A program made the translations under genes and the position numbers. Below, in pieces: positions 7,249 through 62,428 of a DNA stretch of 64,000 nt. Source of the stretch: Rhizophagus irregularis (taxonomy: Eukaryota); contig NC_089433.1 of the NCBI RefSeq assembly GCF_026210795.1, positions 1,116,001-1,180,000 on the forward strand. Reading direction: 5' to 3'. Each line of letters opens with the position of its first letter. Position 1 is the first letter of the stretch. Under the pieces are notes generated by a model, which saw only the letters and a list, made by a program, of their open reading frames with translations, was not told the DNA's origin and ran no database searches.

Positions 7249-9038
7249 TTAAAATGTTAACACATTATTAACAAATATGATAACATAATATTTAAATCTT
7301 AAATCAATATTAATTATATTAATAAAAGAATCACATCTAAAATCTTTAATTACTCCATTATTTTTATATTTATTAATCATTCTTTTATAATCTTTTATTT
7401 CATAAATATTTTCATAAATATAGTCGGGTGTAAGTATAGAAAGTTTCGATCCCTCCATTTTTCTAAAAATTCATCCAATGCTTCCAAAGAAAATTTAATA
7501 TAATGAAGAAATCTAATTTCTCTTAAATTAGTTGGTGCTGATTCAATTAATATTTTCAATAGTTCTTCACCATTTTCAAAATATTATTCTTCTAGTATTT
7601 CATCATTCGTATGTATCTCTAAAAGTAATGACTTTAAATTTTGACAAATTTTTAGTAATTTTTAATTTCATTAAAATGCTGCTTTAATGGTGGAAATACA
7701 AGAGACAAATATTCAATTGAAGGACAATTTTCATGAACCTTACGAATATAAATGAGAGAATCGTCATTAAAGTTTTTATATATTCATCAATATCATAAGA
7801 TGATCTAAATAAAATTATCTTTAGATGTTCTCCACTATTTTCAATTATAATAAAAGCTTTTTTTAATTCATAATGATTAATTTCAAAAATCTCAAGGTCA
7901 TGATAAACGCACATTTTTAATTGTTCTTCGTTAATAGACCAAAAATCCATTATCAACATTTTTAATTTATGAAATTTTGGGAGTATTTTTTGTAATATGC
8001 GATCTTTATATCGATAATTGAATAATAATTTCAAATAATTCATAATTGATATTATCCACCTTTTTTCCCAATGCAAGGAGAATCTCTTCATAAGGTTCTA
8101 ATTTAATAGTAGAAACCCCATTATCATCTTCCATTCACAATACTTTAAATTTTCTGAACTCCAATTATATTAGTTAATCCCATAATAATCATTCAGATTT
8201 ACATTTACAATGATGAGACTCTGTATATATTGACATAGCCAGCCCATAAATATGAAGAATCTATTGATTGATGTGTCACATGTTAATTCACAAAGTGATT
8301 CAAAACGAAACTTAGCTTCTGGAAAATAAAATATTTAATGCTTAATAGATTTCATATCAAAATACCTTAACTCTGAAAATTTTTTCATGAAGAGACCATA
8401 AAATTCTTTTTGTAAAAGAAATTGATTATAAGATCCAATAGAAGTTATAATTTTTATAGTATTTACACTAATACTTTAACAAAAGTAATTGATGTGAAAC
8501 ATCACGGCGGATTTATGAAATACCCTAAATTTGTCCGTCATGTCAAAGAAAATAAATATTTGACAGTCTTTTAGTCGCCAAATTTCCCAAATTTATTAGT
8601 GAACAGTCAAAAATGAGCCCTAAAAAATTTTTTTGTACCCCAAATCTTGCGTTTGACCAATTTTTCCAGTGTTAAAGGTGCGTCATATTTGACATTTTTT
8701 AGGAAAAAAGCTTAATGTTTCTGTAAGTCAATTTTAATTCCCCGAGGGCGAAGCAGGGTTTTTGCCAAATTTCATAAATCCGCCGCAATGACTAATGGTA
8801 ATTGAATTCCTTGTTTCGTTAAAGATTCTTTAATATCATCATAAAAAATAAGAAATAATTATAAATAAATAATTTTTATTATTATAATTAATATCATAAC
8901 ACCATGGATTTTCCATAATATTGGAATCACGATTTCACACCAAAGTCTATTGGTCATTAGGCATGAAAATAGGGATTTTGAATCATCTTTTAATTCTTCA
9001 AATATTAAGAAAAGAATATCTTTATTGAGTTTCGACAT
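7249..9038 (-). pseudogene. Inverted F-box/LRR paralog, frameshifted and interrupted by a MITE
   Basis: ATG at 9038 (MSKLNKDILFLIFEELKDDSKSLFSCLM...). ORF fragments 7684-8091 and 7249-7458 match the middle and C-terminus. Several frameshifts/stops and an insertion at 8500-8790. Confidence 0.85.
8500..8790. mobile_element. MITE with 22-bp TIR
   Basis: CATCACGGCGGATTTATGAAAT at the left end and ATTTCATAAATCCGCCGCAATG at the right (20/22 inverted match). No clear TSD. Confidence 0.7.
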
Positions 9039-29922: not shown

Positions 29923-32246
29923 TTAATAATCTTCAATCATACAATCAAACCCTTGAGACTCTACTTGAACTAAAATTTCAGTAAGTTTGCGACTTGTAAA
30001 ATGTGCTTGTGGATGAGATTGGATAATAGAAGTGTTTACTTGTTTTTGCACTAAAGATTTATTTGCTTCTACAAATTCAAGCATATCATTTGTTAACTGA
30101 TCATCAATATTAAGTAATCTATATTTATAATTTTCATCCCTGTTTACTTCATAATATTTATTAATACATCTAATCCATTCAGATATAATATTTTCAAGCA
30201 TTATTATAGTTGGTCTATTGGAAGGATTTAAATCCCAACATTTCTTCATTAAATTTGTATAACATTTTGGAGTATTTTTCGTAATTTTAGGACGTTTCCC
30301 TTCATAAACACTCAAGATAAAGTGATGATCATGTGCTTCATAGTTAAATGGAGGGATACCTGATGTAAATTCCCACATTATCATTGAAAGGCTATAAATA
30401 TCACTTGCTGAAGAGTATGGTTTTTTTCTTAATATTTCAGGCGCCATATAAGGTAAAACTCCATAAATTTCATTAATTTTTTTATCAGAATCTTGTAAAT
30501 CACTTATAGGTTTGCTAATCCTAAATCAATAATAAATAACTCATTGTAATTATCTGACATTAAAATATTACCATCATGAAAATCACCATGAGTTAAATTT
30601 GATTCATGTATTACTTTAAGTCCTAATATAATTTTTTTCAATAATCGTAACTTATCTTGCCATTTGAATTTAACTATATCAGGTAAACATTTTCTCAAAC
30701 TACCTTTTTTTGCATAACTCATTACTATTATATAATTTAAGTTATTTGGATCTTGGGTGAATCCAAAGAACTGTATAAATTTTGAAAATGATTTTTTCTG
30801 ACAATTATAATGATATTTCCACTATGTAAATAACAAAAATTATTAAACTTTTGTACAAAGAAATAAAATATGCTACTAAATATAAATACTATACCTCATT
30901 CAGAAATTCATTATTTAAACTTGATGAATTATTAAGTGATTTAAGAATAACCTCATAATATGTTTGCCTATTCCATTGTTGTTTATCAAAATTCCAACTA
31001 AAAATAGGTCCATCTGACCAGATAGCTTTATTAATTTCACTAAATCCTCCTTTAGCATAATAATCAATACTTGATAAATTATTGTAAGGTATCCACTCTA
31101 AAATTTCATAACTATTTTTAGCATTTAGCTGTGCTTCTTGAACAAATTCATCAATAAATTTATTTTTACTAGTCCACTTGAAAAATCTTGTTGAAATTGC
31201 TTAGTATTACATTGTTGGCACCATTGGTAATCAGTATTTAGTTGCTTGCATTCATTACAAAATTCATTTTTAGAACTTGTTTTGTTACTTTCTATTGCTA
31301 TTTGGTACCAATAAAAGGCCCTTTCTAAATTCCTTTTTGTTCCTTCTCCATTTCTATAACATGCAACTAAATTAAAAATTGCATCAATATGACTTTTTTT
31401 TGCTGCTTTTTGATACCAATGAAAGGCTTTTTCTAAATTCTTTTCTGTTCCTTTTCCATTTTTATAAAAATTGGCTAAATCAAACATTGCAATAATATGA
31501 TCTTTTTCTGCTGCTTTTTGATACCAATAAAAGGCTTTTTCAAAATTCTTTTCTGTTCTTTCTCCATTTCTATAAAATATGGCTAACTTAAACATTACAT
31601 TAATTTGACCTTTTTCTGCTGCTTTTTGACACCAATGAAAAGCTTTTTCTAAATTCTTTTTTGTTCCTTTTCCATAATAATAGTGAATGACTAAATTAAA
31701 CATTGCAATAATATGCTCTTTTTCTGCTGCTTTTTGATACCAATGAAAGGCTTTTTCAAAATTCTTTTCTATTCCTTCTCCATGTTTATAACGCACAGCT
31801 AAACTATACATTGCATCAATTTGACCTTTTTCTGCTGCTTTTTGACACCAATAAAAGGCTTTTTCAAAATTCTTTTCTATTCCTTCTCCATGTTTATAAT
31901 GCACAGCTAAATTATACATTGCATTAATTTGACCTTTTTCTGCTGCTTTTTGACACCAATAAAAGGCTTTTTCTAAACTTTTTTCTGTTCCTTCTCCATT
32001 TCTATAACATGTAGATAAATATAACATTGCATTAATATGATCATTTGCTGCTGTTTTTTGATACAAATAAAAGGCCTTTTCTAAATTCTTTTCTGTTCCT
32101 TTTCCATTCTTATAACAGTTCGCTAAACTAAACATTGCTTTTTTATCACCATTTTCTGCTAATTTTTCTAAAGAATCAATACATTCTTTACACCAAAGTT
32201 CTTCAGTAAAGGGCCTATTGCAATATAAACAATTTTTGGTGTTCAT
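29923..32246 (-). pseudogene. Sel1-repeat (8x) + tyrosine-kinase-like protein kinase with two 1-nt frameshifts (pseudogene or assembly indels)
   Basis: Eight 36-aa Sel1 repeats between two CxxC...WCxxC motifs; kinase motifs GGFS, VILK, HGDFHDGN, DLG, MAPE, DIYS; intron 30822-30894 (FLNE|WKYH); frameshifts near 31180 and 30515. Confidence 0.85.
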
Positions 32247-32678
32247 TGTATCAGTATCTTTATCTGGTTATTTTAGAAGTTTGTTTTACTGAAAAAAAAA
32301 TTTTTTCTAGACAAAATTTTTTAAAACAAATAATATTCATGAATGAATCAAAGTAGAAAAGAATAATTGTTTCGGGCCGTATTTCCCGATGCACTCAATG
32401 AACTGATCTTCATTGAGAAATTCCAACTATGGGGTCGTCTAAAACGGGTAGTTTTGTCCAACATTACAATTTGACAACCGTGATGTAGATCAATGCATCA
32501 GAAAAGATATATCCCAAAAACGAGTTTACCACACTAAATTGTGTGAGTTGTGTATCTTATATATAAAACAAAATAAAGTTAAATAAAAATAAAATAATTT
32601 TTAAGAGAAACTTTGAAAAATATCCTCCGCGTAGCGCCAAAAAGATAGGAAAACTACGAAGTAGAAATAAGTAGATCG

Positions 32679-36029: not shown

Positions 36030-37345
36030 CTTTTACAATTTAGCACGAAATAATTTGTAAGGAGTGAGGCGCAGCTAATAAATTTTTCGGTGAAATGGTA
36101 AGTCGGGTAATTTTACTTCCCGGTGAAATGGAGTAGAAGTAGGTAAATTTTTCATGTCGGTAAAATGAAAGTCAGCAAAATGGCGTCGGTTAAATTTCAT
36201 GTCAGTAAAATGAATCTATAAATTGTACTGTACATTCATTTTACCATTTGTTTTCTGTATTTTTTAACTATCTTATTTTTTTGCTTTTACAATTTAGCAC
36301 AAAATAATTTGTAAGGAGTGAGGCGAAGCTAATAAATTTTTCGGTGAAATGGTAAGTCGGGTAATTTTACTTCTCGGTAAAATGACATTTCGGTGAAATG
36401 GAGTGGGAGTAGGTAAATTTTCATGTCGGTAAAATGAAAGTCAGCAAAACGGCGTCGGTTAAATTTCATGTCAGTGAAATGAATCTATAAATTGTACTGT
36501 GCCCTCATTTTTTCCATTTTTTTTCTGTATTTTTTAACTATTTTATTTTTTTGCTTTTACAATTTAGCACGAAATAATTTGTAAGGAGTGAGGCGCAGCT
36601 AATAAATTTTTTCGGTGAAATGGTAAGTCGGGTAATTTTACTTCTCAGTAAAATGAAAGTCAGCAAAATGGCGTCGGTTAAATTTCATGTCAGTGAAATG
36701 AGTCTATAAATTGTACTGTACATTCATTTTTATCATTTGTTTTCTGTATTTTTTATTTATTTTTTTGCTTTTACAATTTAGCACGAAATAATTTGTAAGG
36801 AGTGAGGCGCAGCTAATAAATTTTTTCGGTGAAATGGTAAGTCGGGTAATTTTACTTCTCAGTAAAATGAAAGTCAGCAAAATGGCGTCGGTTAAATTTC
36901 ATGTCAGTGAAATGAGTCTATAAATTGTACTGTACATTCATTTTTATCATTTGTTTTCTGTATTTTTTATTTTATTTTTTTGCTTTTACAATTTAGCACA
37001 AAATAATTTTAAAGTAATAAATTTTTCGGTGAAATTTGGTAAGTGAGGCGAAGCTAATAAATTTTTCGGTGAAATGGTAAGTCGGGTAATTTTACTTCTC
37101 GGTAAAATGACATTTCGGTGAAATGGAGTGGGAGTAGGTAAATTTTCATGTCGGTAAAATGAAAGTCAGCAAAATGGCGTCGGCTAAATTTCATGTCAGT
37201 GAAATGAATCTATAAATTGTACTGTGCCCTCATTTTTTCCATTTGTTTTCTGTATTTTTTAACTATTTTATTTTTTTGCTTTTACAATTTAGCACGAAAG
37301 AATTTGTAAGGAGTGAGGCGCAGCTAATAAATTTTTCGGTAAAAG
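36030..37345. repeat. Tandem satellite of ~210-290-bp units (about 5.5 copies)
   Basis: Repeated GCTTTTACAATTTAGCAC.AAATAATTTGTAAGGAGTGAGGCG.AGCTAATAAATTTTTCGGTGAAATGG. Confidence 0.9.
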
Positions 37346-38463: not shown

Positions 38464-41400
38464 GGGTGAATTTATTCCTCACCCCGGGTGAGATTTAATA
38501 TTCTTCACCCCTAAAAATTTTTTTATTTTTTGTTATGTATTTATATGCGTTTTATAATATATTATATATAAAAAAAAATAAAGTTATATTTATTGTATGC
38601 CAAATATATACATATCGTTGATCAATCTTTATTGTTTGATTTCGCCAAATAAACGTAACAATTGAATTGTATCGCACTACTACTAAACAAAATACAAAAT
38701 AATCTTCGCTATAAACATGTGATTATGTAAAGTTCATTATTGTTTTGAACAAGTATTACGATAATGACCGTTTTCTCCACATAAACCACACTTACGACCT
38801 TTATCACCAGAAATTGCTTGTTCACTCCCATTTTTGACTTTATTTGAACCTGATTTTTCAAAAGATGATTTTAACCGCTTCGTTGCGGGTCTACCCTTTG
38901 GTTGATGCTTTAACGGATCCATTATTTGATTAGAATCAACCAATACTCCCCTTGTATTATGAAAAACTCGATTATCATTTGCAATCATTTTTCTTCTTAC
39001 TAAATCTTCTTGTTGTCTAATTGATTCCGCTTGAATTAATTGAGCTTCCCTTCTTTTGTTATATTCTCTTATAAACTGAATTAGTTCTTCATCATCATCT
39101 TGAATCGCAAATTGAATTGCCTTTTTGGCTTCACCCATTAAAGTACCAAATTTCAATTGTTTTTGTGATATTTGCCTGGAATAGCTCTCTGAAAGATCAT
39201 TTACAGTATATTTTCGCGTAAATTCTAAAGTGATTTGTGTATTATTTTGATCATTTTGGCAACTATTCATTATTATTTCACTAGAAGAGATATCACTTGA
39301 AGTGATATATTCATCTTTATACCAACGCTTGGGAATCAACACCAAATGAAAATATGCTTTAGGAGTTTCAACAAACACTTTAAAAAAATGTCTGCATATA
39401 ATACCATGCGTTACAAGCATGAAACAAGTGCATAAATATTCTCCGGTATTAAGCAAAATCACATGTTGATAACACTTCGGAAAATTATACCGAGAGACCT
39501 TCCAAATTTCTAAAATATCGTCTGAGTTAACCATTGAAATCAAGGATTTTAAGTCAAGTTCCCGATCCTCATCAGCTTCAATAGGTGTTTCAATAGAATC
39601 ATCTACTTCTTTATCAAAAAAAGGTTCAAATGAATCGTCATCTGATGCTGAAATTTCGGAAAATGGTACTTGATGTGTACGATAACATACAGATTGGCAC
39701 ATCTGCTTATAATGTGCATCATGAATTGGTTGAGTGAGATACTTTTTCATGGTAATATCAATGTCTTTAAAAAACGTTTGAATAACAAAGGGTTGTGTAT
39801 ACTGTAATGTTGAGGATTTCCAAATTGAATAACGATTGTTAATCAACTCAAATTCTAGCCGATTTTCAATTGATTCTTGAACTTGTGAAAGAAAAAAACT
39901 TGACTGTACAGCCTTCTGTATCAACGCATTTTCTGATTCTACGCGTTGTGTGGATTGTGTTCCCGCCGTGAAATGCCTTGATGTAAAACACTTTACCCAC
40001 GTATGTTTTCTATTTAGTAGCATTGTAGTTATATATTTTTTCCCTGCTTCATATTTTTCAACTATACCTGCAGACCGGCGTTCAAATACACTTTCACAAT
40101 GAGAACGTTGGATTGCCCTAAAATCTTTGAGAAACTCTTGATAAAGAGGTGATCCTAAGCATGAACGAAGATTTTTTGGAAGATTTTGGTAAAGATGGTA
40201 TAAACATTGCATATGATGAGTTTCTGGAAATACTGTAGAAATGGCTGCAATCATGGCAGGATCGGCATCAGTAACAAATGTCAATGGAGGAATTTCACAT
40301 GCTTCAAGACAACATCGAAGCAACCATTCATAAGATTCTTGTTTTTCATCTTGTATGAAGGCTTGGGCCGCCAACCTGCTCTTGTTATAATTATCAATTA
40401 AAATAAAGAGGCTTAATGGGTAGTTATACTTGTTAGTTCGCGCAGTATTGTCATGGATAATAATGTCATAAAATTTAGACCATCTTTCACGTTGTTCTGG
40501 TGACATCCAGAAAATACCAATTAGCCGGTTACTTGTATCATCTATTAATGGCTTTACAAACCATGCAGGATCATCTGCTTGCAATTCAAGAAGTCTCATT
40601 AATAAAGATGCTGCATCTCCTAAATTATTAAGGCCTTTTTCTTGTTTGATCTTTTGAATTGCATTTCCCAAGTCTTGGGTAAGAAATACACGATCAGGAT
40701 ACTTTGGTTGAAGAAGATTCCTAATTGTTCCTGCATCACATCGGCCATGCACAACATAAAATTCTATCTGTTCCATAATTTCTTCAGTAAAATTTTTGTA
40801 ACAAGTGGAGAATTTTATGGTATCGGTGAGAATCTCATGATTGTGTTCGTTATTAAATAACGTTACAGTTACTATGGGTGAATTTATTCGTCTATTAACA
40901 TTCATTTGCCACATACAGCCCTGTTTTTTGGTTCCTTTACTTTTTTCTTTACCTAATGTTGGCCTTAAAAGCTTCTCAGTATACCTTCCTCCTAAATCAC
41001 ACTTAAATACCCTTTTTCTACAAGTACCATCCGGAAATTTTTCACTTTTATGCTTAAAGACAGCAAAATTATTCTGAAGAGCGTACTGTTCTATAAAATG
41101 TACTGCAATTTCCATGGAATGAAACCTTGTTCCATTCTCAATCTCGATTAGAGTATTAATTAACGGAAAGCCACCAACATAATCTTTAAGTTCGGCACCT
41201 AATACACTTTTAACAACATATTCCTCACTATTATCATCATGATTGGTGGGTTCTGTAAAAGGTGAAACCTCATATAACATGATTAACCAAGCACAAAAAG
41301 CAAAGAACATGCAAGAGCAAATACTATTACGGTGCGTATTATGTAGCATGCATGTGAAAAACGCGTGACTGTGGCTTATAATTTATACTGTTTATTTTAT

Positions 41401-41516: not shown

Positions 41517-44024
41517 TTTTTTTATTTATATTTTTTTTTGTAAATTTCAAATTTCATTTAAACATATTTCTTTTGGACACAATCCTAAAAATCATAAACC
41601 CGAAACCACATTATCCCTGACACTTATTATCCTTTTTTAAGATTTTTTTTTAAAAATTTAGTAATGAGATAACATTAAACATTTTTAATTAATTTGATAA
41701 TGATCAACAAATGATCGGAAAATTTCGATAAATACCCGTTGCAAATGAGTTTGTTTAAATAGAAAAATTTAGTATTATAATGTAATACTAAGTAAATTAA
41801 AGATGGTTATAGTAGTTTTTTTGTTTCCATTTAATAAAGTGAATATTTTTAAAAATTATTTATCTATATTATTAATATCATATTTCATTAAATTATCCGG
41901 TTTTTAATATCAGGTGACTCGGTTAGGTTGACTCGTACTGTTTTTTTTTATTAAACAAATAAAAATCTTTTTTTTTTAATAAAAACGAAAAACAACTGAT
42001 TTTTTTTACTAAATTATAAAAAAATCAGTTTCTTTCTTTTCATTTTAATAATCGTTCTTTTTTTTTATTAAAAAAATACTAAATTTTTTTATAAACTAAT
42101 TACGGAAATATGGTTACTCACGGAAGCTAAATATTTATTGTAGAAAAAAATATGTAACGTAATTTTAATTAAACAAATATAATTTTATATACTTAAGCCA
42201 AATATAAATTTGGTTCTTAATAGAGAATTGTTTGTAAAAAAGTTTGATCCTGTAGATAAAGGAGGTTTAGTTTTCTATGAAAATTATTTGCAAAATGATA
42301 TCGAAAATTATCCGATTTTTTTGATTTTCTTTATTACTAAATAAGTCATACATTTTGTTAATTTATTTCATTTATTCAAAAGATTATAATCCATTTCTTA
42401 AACGAAATAATACTTTAATGGCAATAGTAAACATTATATGACTTGAAGAGATATGCAATGGTCATCCGCCATTAAAAAAATCCGGCGCTGAGGCGTTGGG
42501 TCCACAAAGCGCTTGAATTTTAAATATTTCTCGCGATTATCCATTAAAGCTAGAGAAAATTTCAAATATAAAAGATCTTAAGTTTTCGACCTTCTTACTT
42601 TTATTTGTAATCGAAAGAGCTATTTTAAACAACATATAAAAAATTGACTCAGATATTTATTCTCTTTTTATTAAATTTTTCATTATTAAATAGTTATTGG
42701 ATACTAGATATCGGTCGAACACTGGTCGAACACAATACTGCGGTGACCAATAGGAATTAATGCTACTAATAACGATTTAATATAATCCCGCATATTCCTA
42801 ATCGACTGAACAACAACAAAATATTATTAAATTTCCTACCCAAGTTGAAAATATTATAAACCATTTTTTTAATGTTTCTTAATTTATTAAAATTTTAATT
42901 CTAGTAAATATGATATGACAGAATTTAGCAATAGCTAAATTTTAATATGCCTACATTTCATTACTATTTGATATTCGAATGATAAACATTTGTTTGTCAA
43001 AGTTAACCTTTATTATTACGATCGTACAAGTTTAGGTGTTATGCATAAATGTATATGATATACATGCATAAACTTTATTTTTACTAGTATCTACTCTTAG
43101 CGCTCTAGTATGTTCGTGGAGAACGAGGCATATTTACTCAAGTATGAAGAATAAGACTAATTAAAAATTGTAATATAATTAAGAAAAATCGTTATTATTA
43201 GTTTATAATAAAAAAAAAATCACACTGGTCCTATCAAATTCACAATAACTGCGCAATTCCTAAAAATAATTTAAAAAATCAAAATTAATATTTAATATTT
43301 TACCGCTAAACTATTTTGGTATATTTACGTAGTAATAGTCGTACGAAAAGAAGTAAAGAAGCCCGCGTCCTTTTTCATGATACATTATTAAGTAATATAT
43401 TTATAATCCATTTTATTATTTTATTGAAAGAAAAAAATAGATTATATAATTAAATGCAATGAAAAATACAAAGACTACTTGCGATTGATTAAGCATCATA
43501 TGATTTGAAGCGTAATACTTTCTTAACCACTGTTTAAATAACACGTACATACTAGGACAAATTAGGAAATAAAGGCACATATGACTTGTACTATCAATAA
43601 ACATTTGTAATTAATGCTTTTGTTGAAGATCCTTTAAAAAAGGGGAACTTTCTCCGATTTGATAATCTTGATTTAATCATCTGACTGACTGGTTTTTGTC
43701 TCTTAATTTAGTATAAAAAAATTTTTATTGTTTTGTTTCCAACTTTGTTACTTTTTTTTTCTTTCTCTTAAAAAAAATGTATATATGATTTTCATTATCA
43801 TTACCTATCAAATATATCAAATATGTAAATATTTACGTTTAAAAAAAAAAGTTCTACCAAGTCGTTTCATATTAAAGTTTTTAGTATGATCGACAAAAGT
43901 AGTAAATAGATTAGAGATAACGTTCATTTATGAAATTAATTATATAAACCTCACTTTTATCAAAAAATGTTAATTTTTGGCATGACCCTTTTATCCTATT
44001 TTAAATTATATTATTGAAATATTA

Positions 44025-47000
44025 ATGAAAACACTCGTTCGTCCTTCATATAGTAAGGATTTTTTAGACCGCGGGACATTAAACGGGGGATATTTTCACA
44101 ATATTGGAAATATTAATAATATCCAACGACACGATGATAGATATTCGATTAAGGCTGAAAGCTTAGATATGGGCGTTTATTTACAAGAAGATACTTTTGT
44201 CTCTGAAATTAAATATACTAAATTAGTTTATTTCATCATTGATTATCAAAAACGTAATATAAAGGTAGAATTTGATGTTCATGGTAAATTATATTCATTA
44301 GAAAATGAATTCAATAATATTGAAGGTGAAATTTATGTTGAACAACAAAGACCTTATTGGTCTATTACCATCGCAAACAAATTTCCGCCAAGGTATTCAA
44401 TACGTGATGATAACAAACGTTCTTTTAAACGAATGACGAGAATACAAAGTTTAAGAAAAAGTAATGAACCACTTCAACCACATATGTCTGATAATAGTGA
44501 ACAATTAGGCAAATGGGTAGTTTTTAGAATATCCTTTAACAATCAAGCTAATAATCAATTTTATCGTTTTATAAATATGATTGATAAAGCTAGAGATTAT
44601 TCATTAGTATCTAAATTTAATAAACCATTAAAAATAGTAGCTGGGTCAACTTTAAACAAATATGTGAACCGTTCAAATTTAGATTTTGACATCCTATATA
44701 TGATCGAATGTAACCTTTCTTTTAATTACATTCACGATTATAATTTAAATGAAGATTTTTTTTCCTTTTTATCCGTTCAACCAAAAGACGCTGTAATTTA
44801 TGTTTTGGAAAAAATATTTGAAGAGAAAAATCGTATATACGATCCTTTATTATATTTACGTTCAGAGATCAAGAAACGTATTAATGTTTCTGTCAAATTT
44901 AATGAAGTACCTAATCATTGTGCAATGATGCGTAAGGTAGTAGTAACTCCTACTACTATGTATATGTTACCTCCAACTATGGAAACTTCTAATCGAGTGA
45001 TTCGTAATTATGAATATAAAAAAGATAATTTCTTACGAGTACATTTTTCTGATGAAGCATCAAATCCAATCGGTTCATCAAGTGGAAATTTTAATGATAC
45101 TTTTAATGATGCTTTATATAATAGGATTTATTATACATTAAATAATGGTATTAAAATTGGAAATGTACATTATGAATTTTTGGCCTTTTCTTCAAGTCAA
45201 TTGAGAGATCATTCTTGTTGGTTTTTCGCATCAACTGAGGATTTAACCGCAAATAATATAAGAAAGTGGATGGGTGATTTCTCGGATATCAAAACTGTTG
45301 CAAAATATGCTGCACGTATGGGTCAATGTTTTTCAAGTACTAGAGTGATTCAATATGTTCCAGTTAGTGATATTAAAGAAATTCCCGATATAATTAGAAA
45401 TGGGTATACATTTTCTGATGGTATAGGAAAAATATCTTTTTCATTAGCAGAAGTAATTGCAAAAGAATTAGATTTAAAAAGAATTCCAAGTGCTTTTCAA
45501 TTTAGAATGGCGGGATATAAAGGAGTTTTATGTCAATCACGTTATTTGAGAGCAAATCAAGTTCAAGTTCGTCCAAGTCAACATAAATTTAAATCAAATC
45601 ATAATATATTGGAAATTGTTAGATGTTCATCTTACCTTCCATCTTATCTTAATAGGCAAGCCATTACATTATTATCAGCATTAGGAATACCAGATGATGT
45701 ATTCATTCGAATGAAGGATCAACAAGTCAGTGAATTGAGTAGAATTTTTGAAAGTGATCTTTTAGCGTTAAATGTTTTACAACAAAATATTGATGAATAT
45801 GAAACTTCACAATCACTTATAGAATTAGTAAAAGCTGGATTCCTACAATCAAAAGATCCTTACTTAATTAATTTAATTTCTTTATTTCGTATCAAGATGT
45901 TACAAGATCTTAAAAAGAAAGCAAAAATTCGTGTGGGTAGAGGAGCATTTTTAATGGGTGTATTAGATGAAACGAAAACTTTAAAAGATAATGAAGTGTA
46001 TTGTTGTATATCTGATCCTTGTAATCCATCTAAAAGAAAAGTAATTACTGGAACTTGTATTGTATACCGTAACCCTTGTTTTCATCCTGGAGACATACGA
46101 ATCGTTAAAGCTGTATATTGTAATACTTTGAGCAATCTGATGGATGTATTGGTATTTCCTTCAGTTGGATATCGTGATATTCCAAATCAATGTAGTGGTG
46201 GTGATCTAGACGGTGATGATTTTACGTATGTACAATAATTAAACTATGTTAAATTTATATTAATTATTAAAAACAAAATCTAACTATTCCTCTTTTTAGA
46301 ATAATTTATGACGAACATCTAATCCCAAGTGAAGCGCATGAACCCATGAATTATAAATCTAAAAAACCAAAACCGGTCGATCATGTAACTATGGAAAGCA
46401 TTAAAGCATTTTTTGTAAATTATGTATTTTCTGATCAACTTGGTAAGATCGCCAATGCTCATTTGGCAAAAGCGGATTCTTTTCCAAATGGCGCACTCCA
46501 TGGACAATGTAAAGCTCTCGCTCATTTACACTCGGATGCTGTAGATTTTCCAAAAACGGGAATACCGGCAATAGTTCCACAGGAACTTCGTGTAGAACGC
46601 TTTCCAGATTTTATGGAAAAACATGATAAACTAAGTTACGAATCTGAAAAAGTTCTGGGTATTTTATATCGTTCTATTAAAGTAGTAGACTATGAACGAT
46701 ATACTAGTTTGAATTTCGATAAAAGGTTATTATATGTTGAAGGATATGAAAAATATTTAAATAATGCATTAAGACTTAAACGTGCATATGATGCAGAGAT
46801 AAAAGGGGTCATGAATCAATTTGGAATTATGACCGAATTTGAAGTAGTTAGTGGATACATTATTAATACAATTACCAAAATTGATAAGAAAAAACCAAGA
46901 AATGTAATAAAATCTGTAATGGATACAATAATTCCAATTAGAAAAAGTTACCGAAAAAAATTTGAGGAAGAGTTTTATGAAGAAGGAACTAAAATTATTC

Positions 47001-47146
47001 CATCAACAGCTTCTGATCAAATGAAATCAAAAGCCGTTGCTTGGTACTGTGTAACGTATGGATTGAAGGATGAAGATATGATATCTTTTCCTTGGATTGT
47101 GTACGACATTTTATGTGAAATTGTTAAAAATAGTAAGATTAAATGA
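44025..47146 (+). CDS. Eukaryotic RNAi-type RNA-dependent RNA polymerase (exons 44025-46225 and 46300-47146, about 1015 aa)
   Basis: Motifs KYAARMGQCFS, FSDGIG, AFQFRMAGYKG, RNPCFHPGD, catalytic DLDGD, AVDFPKTG. A 74-nt intron 46226-46299 (GTATGT...CTAAC...TAG) joins DGDDFT|IIYDEHL in frame. Confidence 0.95.
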
Positions 47147-54165: not shown

Positions 54166-54326
54166 CCCAGTAGATAGTTTTTGTATAAATTTGTACCAAA
54201 TGGGCTCATCCATATATAATTGGCTCTATATTGGCTTAAATTTGGATTATTTTTTGCATAAATTTGAGCTAATTTCGAGCCAATGAGCCCGTTTGGTATA
54301 AATTTATACAAAAACTATTTACTGGG
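54166..54326. mobile_element. CCC...GGG-ended palindromic MITE
   Basis: ~44-bp TIR CCCAGTAGATAGTTTTTGTATAAATTTGTACCAAATGGGCTCAT / ATGAGCCCGTTTGGTATAAATTTATACAAAAACTATTTACTGGG; TTT flanks. Confidence 0.8.
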
Positions 54327-56002
54327 TTTAAAAAAAAAAACAAACAAACAAACAAACAAACACGATACGGCTCTATAACAGAGTGCAATCTATCCTAAAA
54401 CAAATAAAACTAAACTGCACCTAACTAAAATACTATCTACTAGTGATTACTATGCAGGGAAAAAAAACGCGAGAGAAAATTTGTTATAAAACTGAAAATT
54501 CAGACGGAGCCCAACAGCCCCACGTCCATTAGCAATTATCCCAACTTCTTCCCCCATCAAGTTTATCCCTATAAAAAAAAAGAAAAAATTAGTTATAGTA
54601 TGCTAACCCTATCTAGATTCTATAATATTATTTCGTTTGCATCTAAAAAATTTTTTATCGGTAAATTTTTTAACGTGAAATCACGTGACTTCGATTTTAA
54701 GATGCAAAAATCCGTCATTTAATATCCGTCCTCGCCTCAATTTATCCTTGCTTCTTCACTTTCTTTGTTACTTCTTCCTTCTTCACTTCTCTCTTCTGTG
54801 GTGACTCCAAGATTGGTCGTTTCTCTCCGATTTCTTTTTCGCCTGTCTTGCGATTTTCGTCCTTTAGTCTTTTTTTGAAATCATCATTAAGTGTGGTGTG
54901 TTCTTTAATACTTATTGTTTCTTTACTTCTATTGTTATTATAATTATATACTTACATTATATTTTCAATTTACTAGAAAAAATTTTTTGTTAGTTCAACA
55001 TCTTTTGTTTTATTATTATTAGTTGTTACTTGATACATTATTTGTTTTATCCCTATTTCTAGAAAAAGTCTAATAAATAATTATTTTTATGGGTATTATT
55101 CCAAAAAACTTGTATATATGATCAACTAGTAATAAAAATTTTTATTGGATACAAATTAAAAAATCAATTATCAAATGTGAGGTATTAAGATTGTTAAGAA
55201 GATTATTTACAAGACAAAGATAACCTTCTGAATTGAATGGACAAATGTAAAATTAATTGCTTTTTTGTCACTTAGATATGCTGGATATTTTCCATATACA
55301 TCTTTTGAAAAAAAGAAATTCATGATAAACTCGTAAATGACTACTGAAATAATTTTACAAATGCTGTAAACAAAAAAGTTCTAAAAAATATTTTACGATT
55401 TGACTATTGGACTGCCTGTTAGTGCCTATTATAAAGTTAAAATAATTATGTATAATTATATATAATGTAGTCTTAATAATATAATTTCTTAAATGTATAA
55501 ATGATATTTTTTTTAATTAATATTAAGAATAAAATTAACAATATAAATAAAATACAATTAGCCATTGAAGTGAATATAAAAAATTTTACATTATTTATTT
55601 TAATTTTTTATTTTGATAATTTATACTTAACATTTGGAAAAGTTAAAAAAAAAAGATTTATTTAAATTACAAACTAAGAAATTTGTAAAGTATTTACTAC
55701 TCTAGTCTTAATGTTTAAATAATTCTAAAAAAAGAGAATACATATGAATAAAATATAAAAAAAACGGAATTATTTAAATTACAAACTAAGAATATTGTAA
55801 AATATTTTACTAGTACTCTAGCCTTGGTGTTTAAATAAATCTAAACAACAATTTCTGTTAAATGCATGATATCAAATATCACATAAAAAAACTATAAATT
55901 CTTATAAAAACACGATTATTTTTTATCTGTTTTAAATAATTAAATAAATAAAATTAATTTCACATAAATAATTTGCAAAATTAATTCTTTTTATATACTA
56001 TA

Positions 56003-59000
56003 TTACATACCTAATGACTTCAAATTAACTATACAATCATCCAAATCTTTACTTACTAGCATTTCATTCACTTTTACACTATCTTGTGATTCTTCATTTT
56101 CTTCATTCACTTTTCCACTAGTAGATTGACTTCTACTTTTAAGAATTTCATTTAACTGTTTACTAGTAAAATCATGTAAACGACTTGTATAATATGCATG
56201 TGGATGAGATTCAGTAGCAAGATTATTGTTTTGCCCAACTGGTGCATTTATAAATTCCATAATGTTGCTTTTTAATTCTTCACTGACTTCATAAGGACGG
56301 AAAATCCAATTCCTAATAATTTTTAATACTTCTCTAGAAGATGGCCTTTTTAATGGGTTTTCATCCCAACACCTTTTCATCAAATCTACATAACATTGTG
56401 GAATATTTTCAATAATTTCAGGACGTTCATCTTCACAAATGCCTAAACTAAGTTGAAGATCATGTGCTCTATTATTAAATGGTGGTATTCCAGATGTAAA
56501 TTCCCACATAATCATAGAAAAACTATATATATCACTAGCTGGAGTATAAGGTTTGCCTCTTAAAACTTCAGGAGCCATAAATGGTATGACACCATGAATA
56601 TCATACTTTTTCAAAAACGATTTTACAGATTGACATAATCCTAAATCACTAATATAAATCTTATAGACATCCACACCATAATCATGATTTAAAATATTAC
56701 CATCATGAAAATCACAATGAATAAGATTTTTTTCATGTATCTTATCAAGTCCAGAAATAATTTCGTACAACATATATAATTTTTGATTCCAATTATTTTT
56801 GGCTATACTTATTAAATTTTCTCTTAAATTACCTTTATTTGCATGATCCATTACTACCATATATTTTGAAGTATTTGGATCTTTTGTAAATCCATAAAAA
56901 TCTATAATATTGAAATCAGATACAACACTTGCATGATGTTTCCACTATAAAAAGTAATAATAGTTTATTAATATAAATAAATTTAATTTAAATTAAAAAT
57001 AGAAAATAATATACTATCATACTTCTTTCAAAAATTCATTTAAATTTTCATTTAAATTCTTGTGACATTTAAAAATTACTTCAACCTCTTCATCTTTATC
57101 TCTGTTATTCCTTAACCAAATAGCACTGTATATAGTACCAAATCCTCCTTCATTAAGATATTCAACATTTTTAAATTTGTCATAAGGAATCCATCTTAAT
57201 CCTTCTTTAATAATAAAATCATCTATAATTGCATTTCCACTTTTCCCAAATCTATAAATTTAAATAATTAAAATTATATTATAGATTGTATTGTAATTTA
57301 TACAAAATAAATTATTACTTACTCTAAAATTTAAATTAGGGATTTAATGAAATATAAGTCTTAATTTTTAGATAAATACATATAATAACCTATGATTTAC
57401 AACTTACCAACTAAAGTAACAGATATTGATATTTTTCAAATAAAAGAATTCAGTTAACAAATAAATATTATATAAAACATATAACAATAGAGATACTTAC
57501 AAACTAGATCATAAATAATTTTTAAATAAAGAGATTAGATAATTTAAATTATATCATTATATGTAAATATTATAACAATAAGTAACAATAGAATTAAATA
57601 AATAACTTACTCTCTATATTATTTAATAATTTTTTAAATAAAGAAATTAGATAGTTTAAATTATATGTAAATATTAAAACAATAAGTAACAATAGAATTA
57701 AATAAATAACTTACCATCTATAAAATAATTTTTTAAATAAAGAAATTAGATAGTTTAAATTATATGTAAATATTATAACATTAAGTAATAATAGAATTAA
57801 ATAAATAACTTACACCCTATATCATTTAATAATTTTTTAAATAAAGAAATTAGATAGTTTAAATTATATGTAAATATTATAACAATAAGTGACATTAGAA
57901 TTAAATAAATAACTTACCATCTATAAAATAATTTTTTAAATAAAGAAATTAGATAGTTTAAATTATATGTAAATATTATAACAATAAGTAATAATAGAAT
58001 TAAATAAATAACTTACACCCTATATCATTTAATAATTTTTTAAATAAAGAAATTAGATAGTTTAAATTATATGTAAATATTATAACAATAAGTAATAATA
58101 GAATTAAATAAATAACTTACACCCTATATCATTTAATAATTTTTTAAATAAAGAAATTAAATAATTTAAATTATATGTAAATATTATAACAATAAGTAAT
58201 AATAGAATTAAATAAATAACTTACTCTCTATATTAATTTAATAAATAAAGAAATTAGATAGTTTAAATTATATGTAAATATTATAACAATAAGTAATAAT
58301 AGAATTAAATAAATAAATCATGACTTACCAACTAAATTAAATTACAAAATAATTTTTTAAATAAAGAAATTAGATAGTTTAAATTATATGTAAATATTAA
58401 AACAATAAGTAACAATAGAATTAAATAAATAACTTACCATCTATAAAATAATTTTTTAAATAAAGAAATTAGATAGTTTAAATTATATGTAAATATTATA
58501 ACAATAAGTAATAATAGAATTAAATAAATAACTTACACCCTATATCATTTAATAATTTTTTAAATAAAGAAATTAGATAGTTTAAATTATATGTAAATAT
58601 TATAACAATAAGTAATAATAGAATTAAATAAATAACTTACACCCTATATCATTTAATAATTTTTTAAATAAAGAAATTAAATAATTTAAATTATATGTAA
58701 ATATTATAACAATAAGTAATAATAGAATTAAATAAATAACTTACTCTCTATATTAATTTAATAAATAAAGAAATTAGATAGTTTAAATTATATGTAAATA
58801 TTATAACAATAAGTAATAATAGAATTAAATAAATAACTTACTATCTATAAATAATTTAATAAATAAAGAAATTAGATAGTTTAAATTATATGTAAATATT
58901 ATAACAATAAGTAATAATAGAATTAAATAAATAACTTACTCTCTATATTAATTTAATAAATAAAGAAATTAGATAGTTTAAATTATATGTAAATATTATA

Positions 59001-60157
59001 ACAATAAGTAATAATAGAATTAAATAAATAAATCATGACTTACCAACTAAATTAAATTACAAAATAATTTTTTAAATAAAGAAATTAGATAGTTTAAATT
59101 ATATAAATTATATGTAAATATTATAACAATAAGTAATAATAGAATTAAATAAATAACTTACACCCTATATCATTTAATAATTTTTTAAATAAAGAAATTA
59201 GATAGTTTAAATTATATGTAAACATGAATATTATAACAATAAGTAATAATAGAATTAAATAAATAACTTACCATCTATTTAAATAAAGAATTTAGTTAGT
59301 TTAAATTATATGTAAATATTATAACAATAAGTAATAATAGAATTAAAATAAATAACTTACTATCTATAAATAATTTTTTAAATAAAGAATTTAGTTAGTT
59401 TAAATTATATAAATAATAATAAAAAAACTAGATATCTATAACTTACACCCTAGTGTTGTTAATTAATTATTAGTTAAGTATAAATATAATATAAAATTAT
59501 TTACTGTAAATTAAATATATCACTTACAAACTAGTTGTTTAAATTAAGAATATAATTAGTTGAGTTATATAAAATATTAAACAAATAAATATGATATTAT
59601 AACTTACCTTCTGTAATACAATAATTATTAAATAGTTAATTAAATAAAGAATTTAGTTATTTGAATATTATGTAAAATAAACAAAGTAAAGAATTAAAAT
59701 TTAAATAACTAATAACTTACTGACTATAGTATTATTAATCATTAAATGAATTATTTAATTACATAAAATGTAATAAAAATGATAAGTAAATCCATTATTA
59801 TTCAATTATAAGATAACCTATTAACTTACAATCTATATTTGTATATTATATAAGGTGTAATTATAGATAGTATTTAAATGCATTTACAAATAAAAATTTA
59901 ATATTTTAGCATGTTTAATATACCTATAGATTCCTTGGTACAACTTTTTTCAAATTCTTCAAAGCCACTTTCTTTGAATTCCTCGAATTCCTCAGAGCCA
60001 CTTCCTTCAAATTCTTCAGTACTGCTTCCTTCAAGTTCAATATTACCAGAAACTAGTTTTATTATATTATAAATTTGTTTAAAATATTAGAATTCTAATT
60101 GTATTAAATGTTTATATTATATATATGATTATTACCCTTATCATTATTAAGAGCCAT
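56003..60157 (-). CDS. Tyrosine-kinase-like protein kinase with a micro-exon-encoded N-terminal segment (30 exons, 465 aa predicted)
   Basis: Exons 60157-60136 (MALNNDK), 60052-59924 (acidic), 25 three-nt exons, a 1-nt exon at 57323, 57251-57023 (FGKSGNAIIDDFI...WIPY...EGGFG...VIFK) and 56944-56003 (HCDFHDGN, DLG, MAPE, DIYS). Total 1398 nt, open throughout. The kinase exons are certain; the 5' model is inferred from splice signals. Confidence 0.8.
57323..59832 (-). repeat. Tandem intron + micro-exon array (units about 80-118 bp)
   Basis: Exons in transcript order (lowest coordinate given): ATT 59830, TCA 59721, AAG 59608, TTT 59528, GGT 59447, ATA 59361, ATG 59272, GGT 59162, TTG 59044, AGA 58940, ATA 58842, AGA 58745, GGT 58641, GGT 58537, ATG 58438, TTG 58329, AGA 58225, GGT 58121, GGT 58017, ATG 57918, GGT 57814, ATG 57715, AGA 57611, TTT 57501, TTG 57408, A 57323. 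Each is YAG-exon-GTAAGT. Confidence 0.88.
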
Positions 60158-62195: not shown

Positions 62196-62428
62196 AGGAC
62201 CCAGAAATATATATAAAAGGGTCAGGTTTGAGTTTGCGTATTTTGAACTAAAAAAATCATGAAAATCTTTCCTTTTTTAGATAATTTTTGATAATGCCAG
62301 TCAGAATTTTATTCCCTATTATAGTAACTGACTGGCATTATCATAATTCCGGCACTGAAAAAATGCGTACAGCTCATAGTAAAAAATTTTTTCATCACCT
62401 GACCCCTATATATATATTTCTGGGTCCT
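62196..62428. mobile_element. MITE with 8-bp TSD (hAT-like TSD length)
   Basis: TIR AGGACCCAGAAATATATATA...GGGTCAGGT / ACCTGACCCC..TATATATATTTCTGGGTCCT; TSD CATGTACC. Confidence 0.85.

Follow-up and report, generated by a model that had tools for sequence, protein, structure and literature searches.

A predicted array of one-codon exons upstream of a putative kinase domain in Rhizophagus irregularis and its likely reshuffling at the DNA level

The window analysed here is a stretch of 64,000 nt from one haplotype of the arbuscular mycorrhizal (AM) fungus Rhizophagus irregularis (GCF_026210795.1, NC_089433.1, 1,116,001-1,180,000); it is AT-rich, and positions below count from its first base. 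On its minus strand lies a predicted kinase gene in which 25 three-base exons and a single-base exon separate an acidic N-terminus from the kinase domain. These tiny exons are probably spliced one after the other, each adding a codon to the protein, and their introns are so alike that units appear to have been copied and rearranged as blocks of DNA. The predicted features of the gene, in the direction of transcription, are the following.

60136-60157, minus strand: first coding exon, 22 nt with the start codon, end phase 1; its N-terminus is common to the annotated paralogs P0032, P0039, P0050 and P0055.
59924-60052, minus strand: second coding exon, 129 nt of acidic repeats rich in E, G, S and F, end phase 1; annotations of paralogs have this exon as well as the first.
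59361-59832, minus strand: outer section on the 5' side of the array, comprising six three-base exons (59830-32, 59721-23, 59608-10, 59528-30, 59447-49 and 59361-63) with diverged introns.
57611-59274, minus strand: array core, 17 three-base exons in a minisatellite of about 100 bp, with near-identical introns and a CTAAY branch-point-like site.
59272, 59162, 59044, 58940, 58842, 58745, 58641, 58537 and 58438, minus strand: lowest base of each of the first nine core exons.
58329, 58225, 58121, 58017, 57918, 57814, 57715 and 57611, minus strand: lowest base of each of the last eight core exons.
57828-58389 against 58348-58684 plus 58880-59104, minus strand: both copies of the higher-order repeat, 520 bp and five units long.
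58685-58879, minus strand: two-unit insert of 195 bp in the upper 520-bp copy, giving lags of 195 and 715 (520 + 195).
57501-03 and 57408-10, minus strand: final two three-base exons, with diverged introns; a TTG unit stands at the same place in paralog RNA.
57323, minus strand: one-base exon, which changes the phase from 1 to 2; 57251 and 57323 are joined in one contig of run X2, and the exon is in paralog reads too.
57023-57251, minus strand: first large kinase exon, with a juxta-kinase segment and the start of the N-lobe; RNA depth ends exactly at 57251.
56003-56944, minus strand: last exon, with the remainder of the Tyr/Ser-Thr (TKL-like) kinase domain and a C-terminal tail.

The identity of the gene is carried by its 3' end. 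The minus-strand open reading frame at 56006-56944 is 100% identical to P0001, an R. irregularis protein labelled kinase-like by its source, whose start falls, by eye, within intron 21. The last exon matches PF07714 (PK_Tyr_Ser-Thr) with an E-value of 1.3e-39 and 136.5 bits against a curated cut-off of 23.1; the closest solved chains for the kinase domain are EGFR, CTR1, MLTK and RIPK1, and the Lys, the catalytic-loop Asp and the DLG motif were all present on inspection. Pfam matches comprised kinase families only, with NACHT and ankyrin absent from them, and the second coding exon (59924-60052) matched no Pfam family. On these grounds the gene is a putative Tyr/Ser-Thr (TKL-like) kinase, and at least 1,117 database proteins match at E <= 1e-30. 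By inspection the N-terminus is acidic and contains no hydrophobic stretch of the kind a signal peptide would have.

Between these two ends the minus strand carries the array, running from 59832 to 57408 in 25 three-base units, each laid out as YAG/NNN/GTAAGT, followed by the one-base exon at 57323. Its 27 introns are 71-115 nt long; GTAAGT starts 26 of the 27 and YAG ends all of them, and CTAAY lies 25-42 nt before the AG in 17 of the 19 core introns, the remaining two having TTAAT. All 26 units have perfect splice sites, eight with diverged introns among them, and the most variable part of a unit is the triplet itself. The core falls within a head-to-tail tandem repeat (57556-59278, period 104, 16.6 copies). 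Across the window, 25 of the 27 minus-strand sites of the form YAG-N3-GTRAG are inside the array and the plus strand has five, while spacers of 0-7 nt other than 3 give 0-5 sites per strand; the array is far above chance expectation. A first-pass annotation of the locus had already recognised the near-identical central units and diverged outer ones, which repeat and unit comparison confirms, and all eight of the exon positions it named (57918, 58017, 58121, 58225 and their partners 520 bp away) are correct three-base units. Its limits of 57560-59300, however, enclose only part of the array, and the units that it described from plus-strand letters are exon candidates on the minus strand.

Joined in order, exons 1 and 2, the 25 triplets, the single base and the two large exons give one frame of 465 residues, which reads from the acidic N-terminus through the array segment into the kinase. 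The array accounts for 76 of the 1398 coding bases and encodes 26 residues, rich in aromatic and charged side chains and including a repeated RWY. That the duplication of AGA-GGT-GGT-ATG repeats this peptide, as proposed in the first-pass annotation, holds, but only when the triplets are read in phase 1, in frame with the flanking exons. The order of the triplets matters for this frame: only 2.8% of 200,000 shuffles are free of stops (P 0.028). Because the micro-exons lie in phase 1, each codon is split over two units, and moving a unit adds one residue and can alter its neighbour. The further expectation that the peptide evolves by whole residues without frameshifts is therefore correct as far as the frame goes, since every cassette is frame-neutral, but neighbouring residues can change too and some combinations are fatal: a stop is created by 4 of the 25 single skips and by 24 of the 300 pairings, leaving 21/25 and 276/300 stop-free. 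We also considered a phase-0 reading with a five-base last exon, as in P0010, P0014, P0045, P0284, P0293, P0295 and P0297, and discarded it, because it breaks the frame from exon 2 and RNA shows a one-base exon. Public protein models of the paralogs either skip the array or read its triplets in phase 0, and our protein searches found no transcript-derived model with the true N-terminus.

The core preserves a good deal of its own history. At lag 520 the longest exact match is 421 bp (57896-58316), and when the 195-bp insert is taken out the two copies align over 562 bp with three differences, so that the repeat comprises five units, a TTG unit and the four already named, and is present twice; the 520-bp higher-order repeat of the first-pass annotation thus stands. 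Its companion claim, that each triplet type carries its own adjacent intron signature, describes most units (GGT 6/7, ATG 3/4, AGA 4/4, TTG 2/3) but fails at the outermost ones. To see which part of an intron travels with which triplet, we cut each of 18 core introns into three parts, a donor end, a body and an acceptor end. The triplet that follows an intron can be predicted from its acceptor end (P < 1/20000) and the one before it from its donor end (P 0.002, owing to the TTG units), both P values being overstated because the 18 introns are related by duplication; from the body, the following triplet cannot be predicted (P 0.25). Twelve exact blocks of at least 105 bp overlap one another at lags of 520, 715, 723, 195, 203 and others, and all twelve end within introns, as is partly expected where introns make up 97% of the array.

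These results support an array pieced together by block duplications that overlap one another, the triplet moving with its acceptor end but not with the intron body. Since the TTG units carry their own donor end as well, the mobile piece would be half-intron, exon, half-intron. The simplest history that fits is a duplication of five units, a later insertion of two, and further exchanges at the shared intron body; unequal crossover, gene conversion and slippage would each fit the one haplotype. Of the unequal crossover of intron-plus-triplet cassettes suggested at first, the mosaic of duplicated blocks survives, whereas the cassette has different boundaries and crossover is not separable from conversion or slippage. 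Whatever the route, we are fairly sure that reshuffling at the DNA level is the source of the unit order in the window.

The layout is not peculiar to this gene. A metagenome scan gave 355 pattern matches and 179 confirmed relatives, from which 80 loci were kept, mostly on short contigs; the first kinase exon could be placed in 51 of them. A micro-exon motif lies just upstream of that exon in 26 of the 51, with two to eight units in 17. Of the motif sites in the 80 loci, 65 are on the coding strand and 2 on the opposite one; 64 of the 65 lie upstream of the first kinase exon, none downstream and one in an unparsed locus. The triplets are diverse (23 types among 56 in the other loci), and their phase is shared. 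The last micro-exon is 1 or 4 nt long at kinase exons that start in phase 2 (8/8 loci, and likewise in the window) and 3 nt long at those that start in phase 1 (16/16 loci, 15 of them distinct). For this count we placed the acceptor of L024 manually and excluded the ambiguous loci L049 and L061. Phase-1 junction codons outside the window contain no stop in 54 (2.5 expected, P 0.04), and none in 79 with the window included (4.7 expected, P 0.002), while the phase-2 control has 15 stops against 15.8 expected; L033, L049, L061 and micro-exon gaps of more than 130 nt were dropped from this test. Tyr is the commonest junction residue (15/79). The micro-exon layout is therefore family-wide, with one codon phase shared and stops avoided.

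The array layout occurs in kinases only 42-72% identical, in two subfamilies. Where it joins the kinase, sister kinases have a CxxC..CxxC motif, found in 13 of the 51 loci against 26 with an array; 25 of the 26 array loci are without the motif and 12 of the 13 motif loci are without an array, only L049 having both. There, at L049:100-480, a three-base exon stands upstream of a CxxC..CxxC exon that is intact, and the locus may be transitional between the two types of kinase. At L061:75-135 we noted an inverted micro-exon unit upstream of the kinase array, and the donor of the last one-base exon seems damaged. The introns flanking the one-base exon in the window (57252-57407) are close in sequence to those at L001:1-124, in kinases that are only about 72% identical. 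The window itself holds a second kinase, on the minus strand at 29923-32267, with eight Sel1 stretches, a 108-bp repeat and CxxC..CxxC, and no array.

RNA from the paralogs is where the splicing can be seen. In X21 and X22, polyA runs of one study, we looked at the junction stretch 57196-57425: 59 of 64 reads (X21) and 77 of 85 (X22) leave the genome at the acceptor 57250/57251, and depth in the intron is zero. Reads at least 99% alike to the window number 2/64 and 2/85, the rest coming from paralogs. Past the acceptor, the loose letters of the paralog reads are a single base and then the TTG unit, not intron or exon-2 sequence, as the spliced model predicts. For one paralog they form a clean string of 30 letters (19 and 13 reads, agreement 0.93 and 0.83), which recurs in one X2 contig from a separate study and gives ten codons without a stop, in frame with the kinase; where paralogs are mixed, agreement of the loose-end consensus is 0.62-0.63. 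Two partly spliced forms were seen as well. The X2 contig that joins 57251 to 57323-57332 has lost the last intron, kept the single base and retained the preceding intron, and three X22 reads (agreement 0.8) retain the intron before the one-base exon, beyond which they run on upstream through five further triplets to an intron end. Both forms are as expected if introns are removed singly and in steps. In the paralogs, splicing joins the one-base exon and the last triplet to the kinase exon, and we think it likely that the array of the window copy is spliced as well. Run X15 placed no reads on the junction stretch. We did not count the agreement of RNA-derived triplets with the set of genomic triplets as evidence, since other phases fit equally well.

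Several observations weigh against this account, beyond the inflated association values and partly expected block ends already given. A coverage check of 55900-57550, with three RNA runs and one contig set holding mostly paralog reads, found only 5/244, 9/294 and 14/180 reads at least 99% alike to the window copy, and no informative joint on the array side among the loose-end rows listed for that interval. No read in these RNA runs shows the array of the window copy spliced. The RNA evidence comes from paralogs, whose triplet-like letters could stem from longer exons, and each read end supplies only 30 loose letters, which leaves the join to exon 2 outside the view. None of the five annotated proteins in the cluster of the window gene contains the array-coded segment. 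Intron bodies are 0.65-0.95 alike within loci, with a mean of 0.68 between loci and 0.58 when shuffled, but some loci of one subfamily reach 0.80-0.89 between them, as high as within a locus; homogenisation is therefore not confined to one gene.

Weighing all of this, we consider it probable that the array is a set of serially spliced one-codon units placed before the kinase and reshuffled through near-identical introns, giving a fast-changing stretch that would tune sensing or binding. Each unit, with YAG before its three bases and GTAAGT after them, would contribute to the 465-residue frame under full inclusion, as the sequence itself lays out. The short introns would be removed one by one and the triplets joined serially, as in the paralogs and, we infer, in the window copy, and the final exon of one or four bases would fix the phase in which the kinase exon is read. 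As the mosaic suggests, half-intron/exon/half-intron cassettes could be copied, lost or moved, alone or as blocks, by exchanges within the intron body that they share; point changes in a triplet or acceptor end might create new cassette types, and selection would remove the unit orders that create a stop. Standing in place of the CxxC..CxxC of sister kinases, the segment might be a variable element of non-self or danger signalling that confers specificity or acts as bait. A sensing or specificity role is a tentative suggestion, which draws on the replacement of the Cys motif and on the kinds of genes that carry such arrays.

A different use of the same units would be alternative splicing, in which subsets of triplets are skipped, each skip makes new codons and many isoforms result, with DNA duplication only supplying the units. 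Any subset of triplets keeps the frame and most skips and pairings are free of stops, the partly spliced paralog RNA could be seen in this light, the mixed consensus of loose ends could conceal isoforms, and the nank genes of Tuber offer a precedent as they are described in PMC4986451. Yet the paralog that can be read cleanly shows agreeing reads over about ten units, matched by the contig of another study, which points to one main serial isoform, and stops are avoided between genomic neighbours, as full inclusion would give. We regard alternative splicing as the main function of the array as unlikely.

It is also doubtful that the array, spliced and translated, is simply a tolerant linker that grows and shrinks like a minisatellite under selection for frame and absence of stops only. 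The free variation of the triplets agrees with this, as do the lack of a conserved peptide in the segment and the weak RNA coverage of the window copy, and block duplication is ordinary minisatellite behaviour. Against it, a costly layout has been kept across the diverged kinases of two subfamilies, the array substitutes for a conserved Cys motif at the same place, Tyr predominates at the junctions, and similar arrays recur beside recognition or death-signalling domains.

That the array of the window is a non-coding repeat in one long intron, or belongs to a silent paralog, its splice-like motifs inherited and passively multiplied, is in our opinion highly unlikely. No gene-specific spliced read was found for the window copy, existing annotations skip the array, and a repeat copies whatever motif it contains. 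Nevertheless, splice sites are perfect in 26/26 units, eight of them despite diverged introns; the most variable part is the triplet, and its order is still stop-free; exon 2, which ends in phase 1, would shift the frame if joined directly to the kinase exon in phase 2; and the kinase frame is intact. A fixed phase and an absence of stops across the family also do not fit the lack of coding constraint by which a non-coding minisatellite would be recognised. Finally, an assembly artefact producing the 520-bp duplication inside a real, shorter array is extremely unlikely: although the copies share 421 identical bp and speak to us through assembled sequence only, they differ at 3 of 562 positions, one has a 195-bp insert with a unit type missing from the other, and overlapping duplications (lags 723 and 203) bear marker bases of their own.

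Serial splicing of reshuffled one-codon units has relatives in the literature. The closest is the expanded NACHT-ankyrin (nank) family of Tuber melanosporum, in which alternative splicing of codon-sized exons provides diversity (Iotti et al., 2012, cited in Dyrka et al., 2014, PMC4986451). Our comparison follows this cited description. An expanded signalling family of a mycorrhizal fungus, multiple codon-sized exons and a reading in terms of diversification are common to both (PMC4986451), and of the traits of the nank type we find here the run of codon-sized exons and an expanded family of paralogs sharing the layout (26/51 loci). The carrier differs, being a TKL-like kinase of Glomeromycotina without NACHT or ankyrin, and so, probably, does the route, the evidence here pointing to block duplication in the DNA and one main serial isoform as opposed to the alternative splicing cited for Tuber (PMC4986451). 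By its sequence, the array of the window would be like the Tuber arrays in layout and outside the nank family. The micro-exon genes (MEGs) of Schistosoma, as summarised in PMC10526429, have exons of mostly 15 bp (6-81), introns of 100-5000 bp and secreted products. They share with our gene many consecutive small exons, mostly multiples of three, expansion by duplication and variable products (PMC10526429); in the window, however, the exons have 3 nt (25/26), the introns are homologous and of 71-115 nt, and the product is a kinase with an acidic N-terminus, and by intron size, exon size and secretion the gene is not a MEG.

In the HYP effectors of potato cyst nematodes, motifs of 5-6 residues lie within one exon, and allelic or somatic variation is described (PMC11228951). 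Their hyper-variable domain resembles the array in that the number and order of small modules, including higher-order combinations, are shuffled in frame at the DNA level (PMC11228951), but our module is one codon, separated from the next by an intron, and the homology for exchange lies in the introns. Micro-exons of 3 nt are spliced in animals and dinoflagellates (PMC12584245), where the account given is of isolated ones in otherwise ordinary genes, in contrast to the tandem array of the window. The window gene is a member of the expanded kinase repertoire of AM fungi, given as 2,533 members for R. irregularis (PMC10234402); our word search of the text of that long-read annotation paper turned up no micro-exons. 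Our literature search found no such array described in AM fungi, a weak test considering that the same search also missed the Tuber precedent. Codon-sized exon arrays were already known from Tuber; the kinase domain, the other phylum and the probable shuffling at the DNA level would be new here.

If our reading is correct, a large kinase family of a model mycorrhizal fungus would contain a hidden variable segment that public gene models skip or misphase. Its block duplications, marker bases and cassette boundaries form a readable record of how the array changes, adding a DNA-level route beside the splicing route cited for the truffle genes. The locus is short and could be typed, with a bearing on the roles of AM-fungal kinases and on self/non-self recognition in multinucleate fungi. 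Moreover, the ordered splicing of abutting short introns could be put to the test on this series of 25 three-base exons and one single-base exon.

Outside the kinase family, we scanned two further collections with the motif. Among viral contigs the motif turned up in 13 stretches, and no convincing array was among them. The prokaryote collection was intended as a negative control; of the 81 stretches listed there, 74 are, by eye, repeats whose triplets are fixed or few in kind, whereas seven loci, which come from three records, have variable triplets and look like eukaryotic contaminants. One of the records is a 12.9-kb contig in a metagenome-assembled genome (MAG) of Rhodobacterales (L147:67-8794, L139:2400-3056, L187:732-1046), with 87 three-base units at a period of 102 nt, in phase 0 and rich in M, E, R and P. 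Its array precedes a ZU5 exon (Pfam E 6.7e-7), the nearest Atlas clusters are animal, and the last exon has a weak match to Pfam Death (E 0.089); a Death-domain search in G001 gave no match, and its control was likewise without one. This contig resembles DNA of an animal host that was binned with bacteria. In contigs of a Mycoplasma MAG (L116, L125 and L158) we observed 31-38 variable triplets with introns of 30 nt and a GC content of 17-20%; read in phase 0, they contain one TGA in 106. Two of the three share Cys-containing ends around a variable middle, L116 has a RING-like frame downstream, and L125 ends in three GGGGATT repeats, which we take to resemble a rumen-ciliate telomere. They are probably from a protist with small introns. 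Two tiny contigs filed under Ca. Glomeribacter gigasporarum (L141, L148) have three-base units at about 102 nt and a GC content of 14-20%; they are probably DNA of the host Gigaspora, and would extend the arrays to another AM-fungal order. The arrays of these seven loci are predictions from sequence. A broader idea would be that one-codon exon arrays are a recurrent eukaryotic diversifier of non-self signalling proteins, with homologous introns as recombination handles around single codons, by which a sensing stretch could be altered one residue at a time and in frame: in AM fungi a hypervariable sensor of a large kinase family that replaced a zinc-binding motif and varies between isolates or nuclei, and, arisen separately, the truffle NLRs, an animal ZU5/death-type gene with 87 units and a small-intron protist. 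This is speculative, and as a whole we rate it as quite unlikely.

The rest of the window holds several further elements. On the plus strand, 1203-22332 contains at least four paralogous frames of about 500 aa with an F-box-like start (1203, 4412, 13493 and 20827), and a fragment lies on the minus strand at 7684-8097. Two long plus-strand frames at 43986-47146 have a DLDGD motif and are presumably RNA-dependent RNA polymerase-like. A minus-strand frame of 881 aa (38737-41382) has a SWIM-like motif, and we assume it to be similar to MULE/FAR1-type transposases. Inverted repeats of 44 and 32 nt, 93-94% complementary and with short spacers, at 54166-54326 and 62196-62428 resemble miniature inverted-repeat transposable elements. 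At 36121-37009, tandem repeats of 270 and 214 bp are 94-95% alike, with a plus-strand GTAAGT in each.

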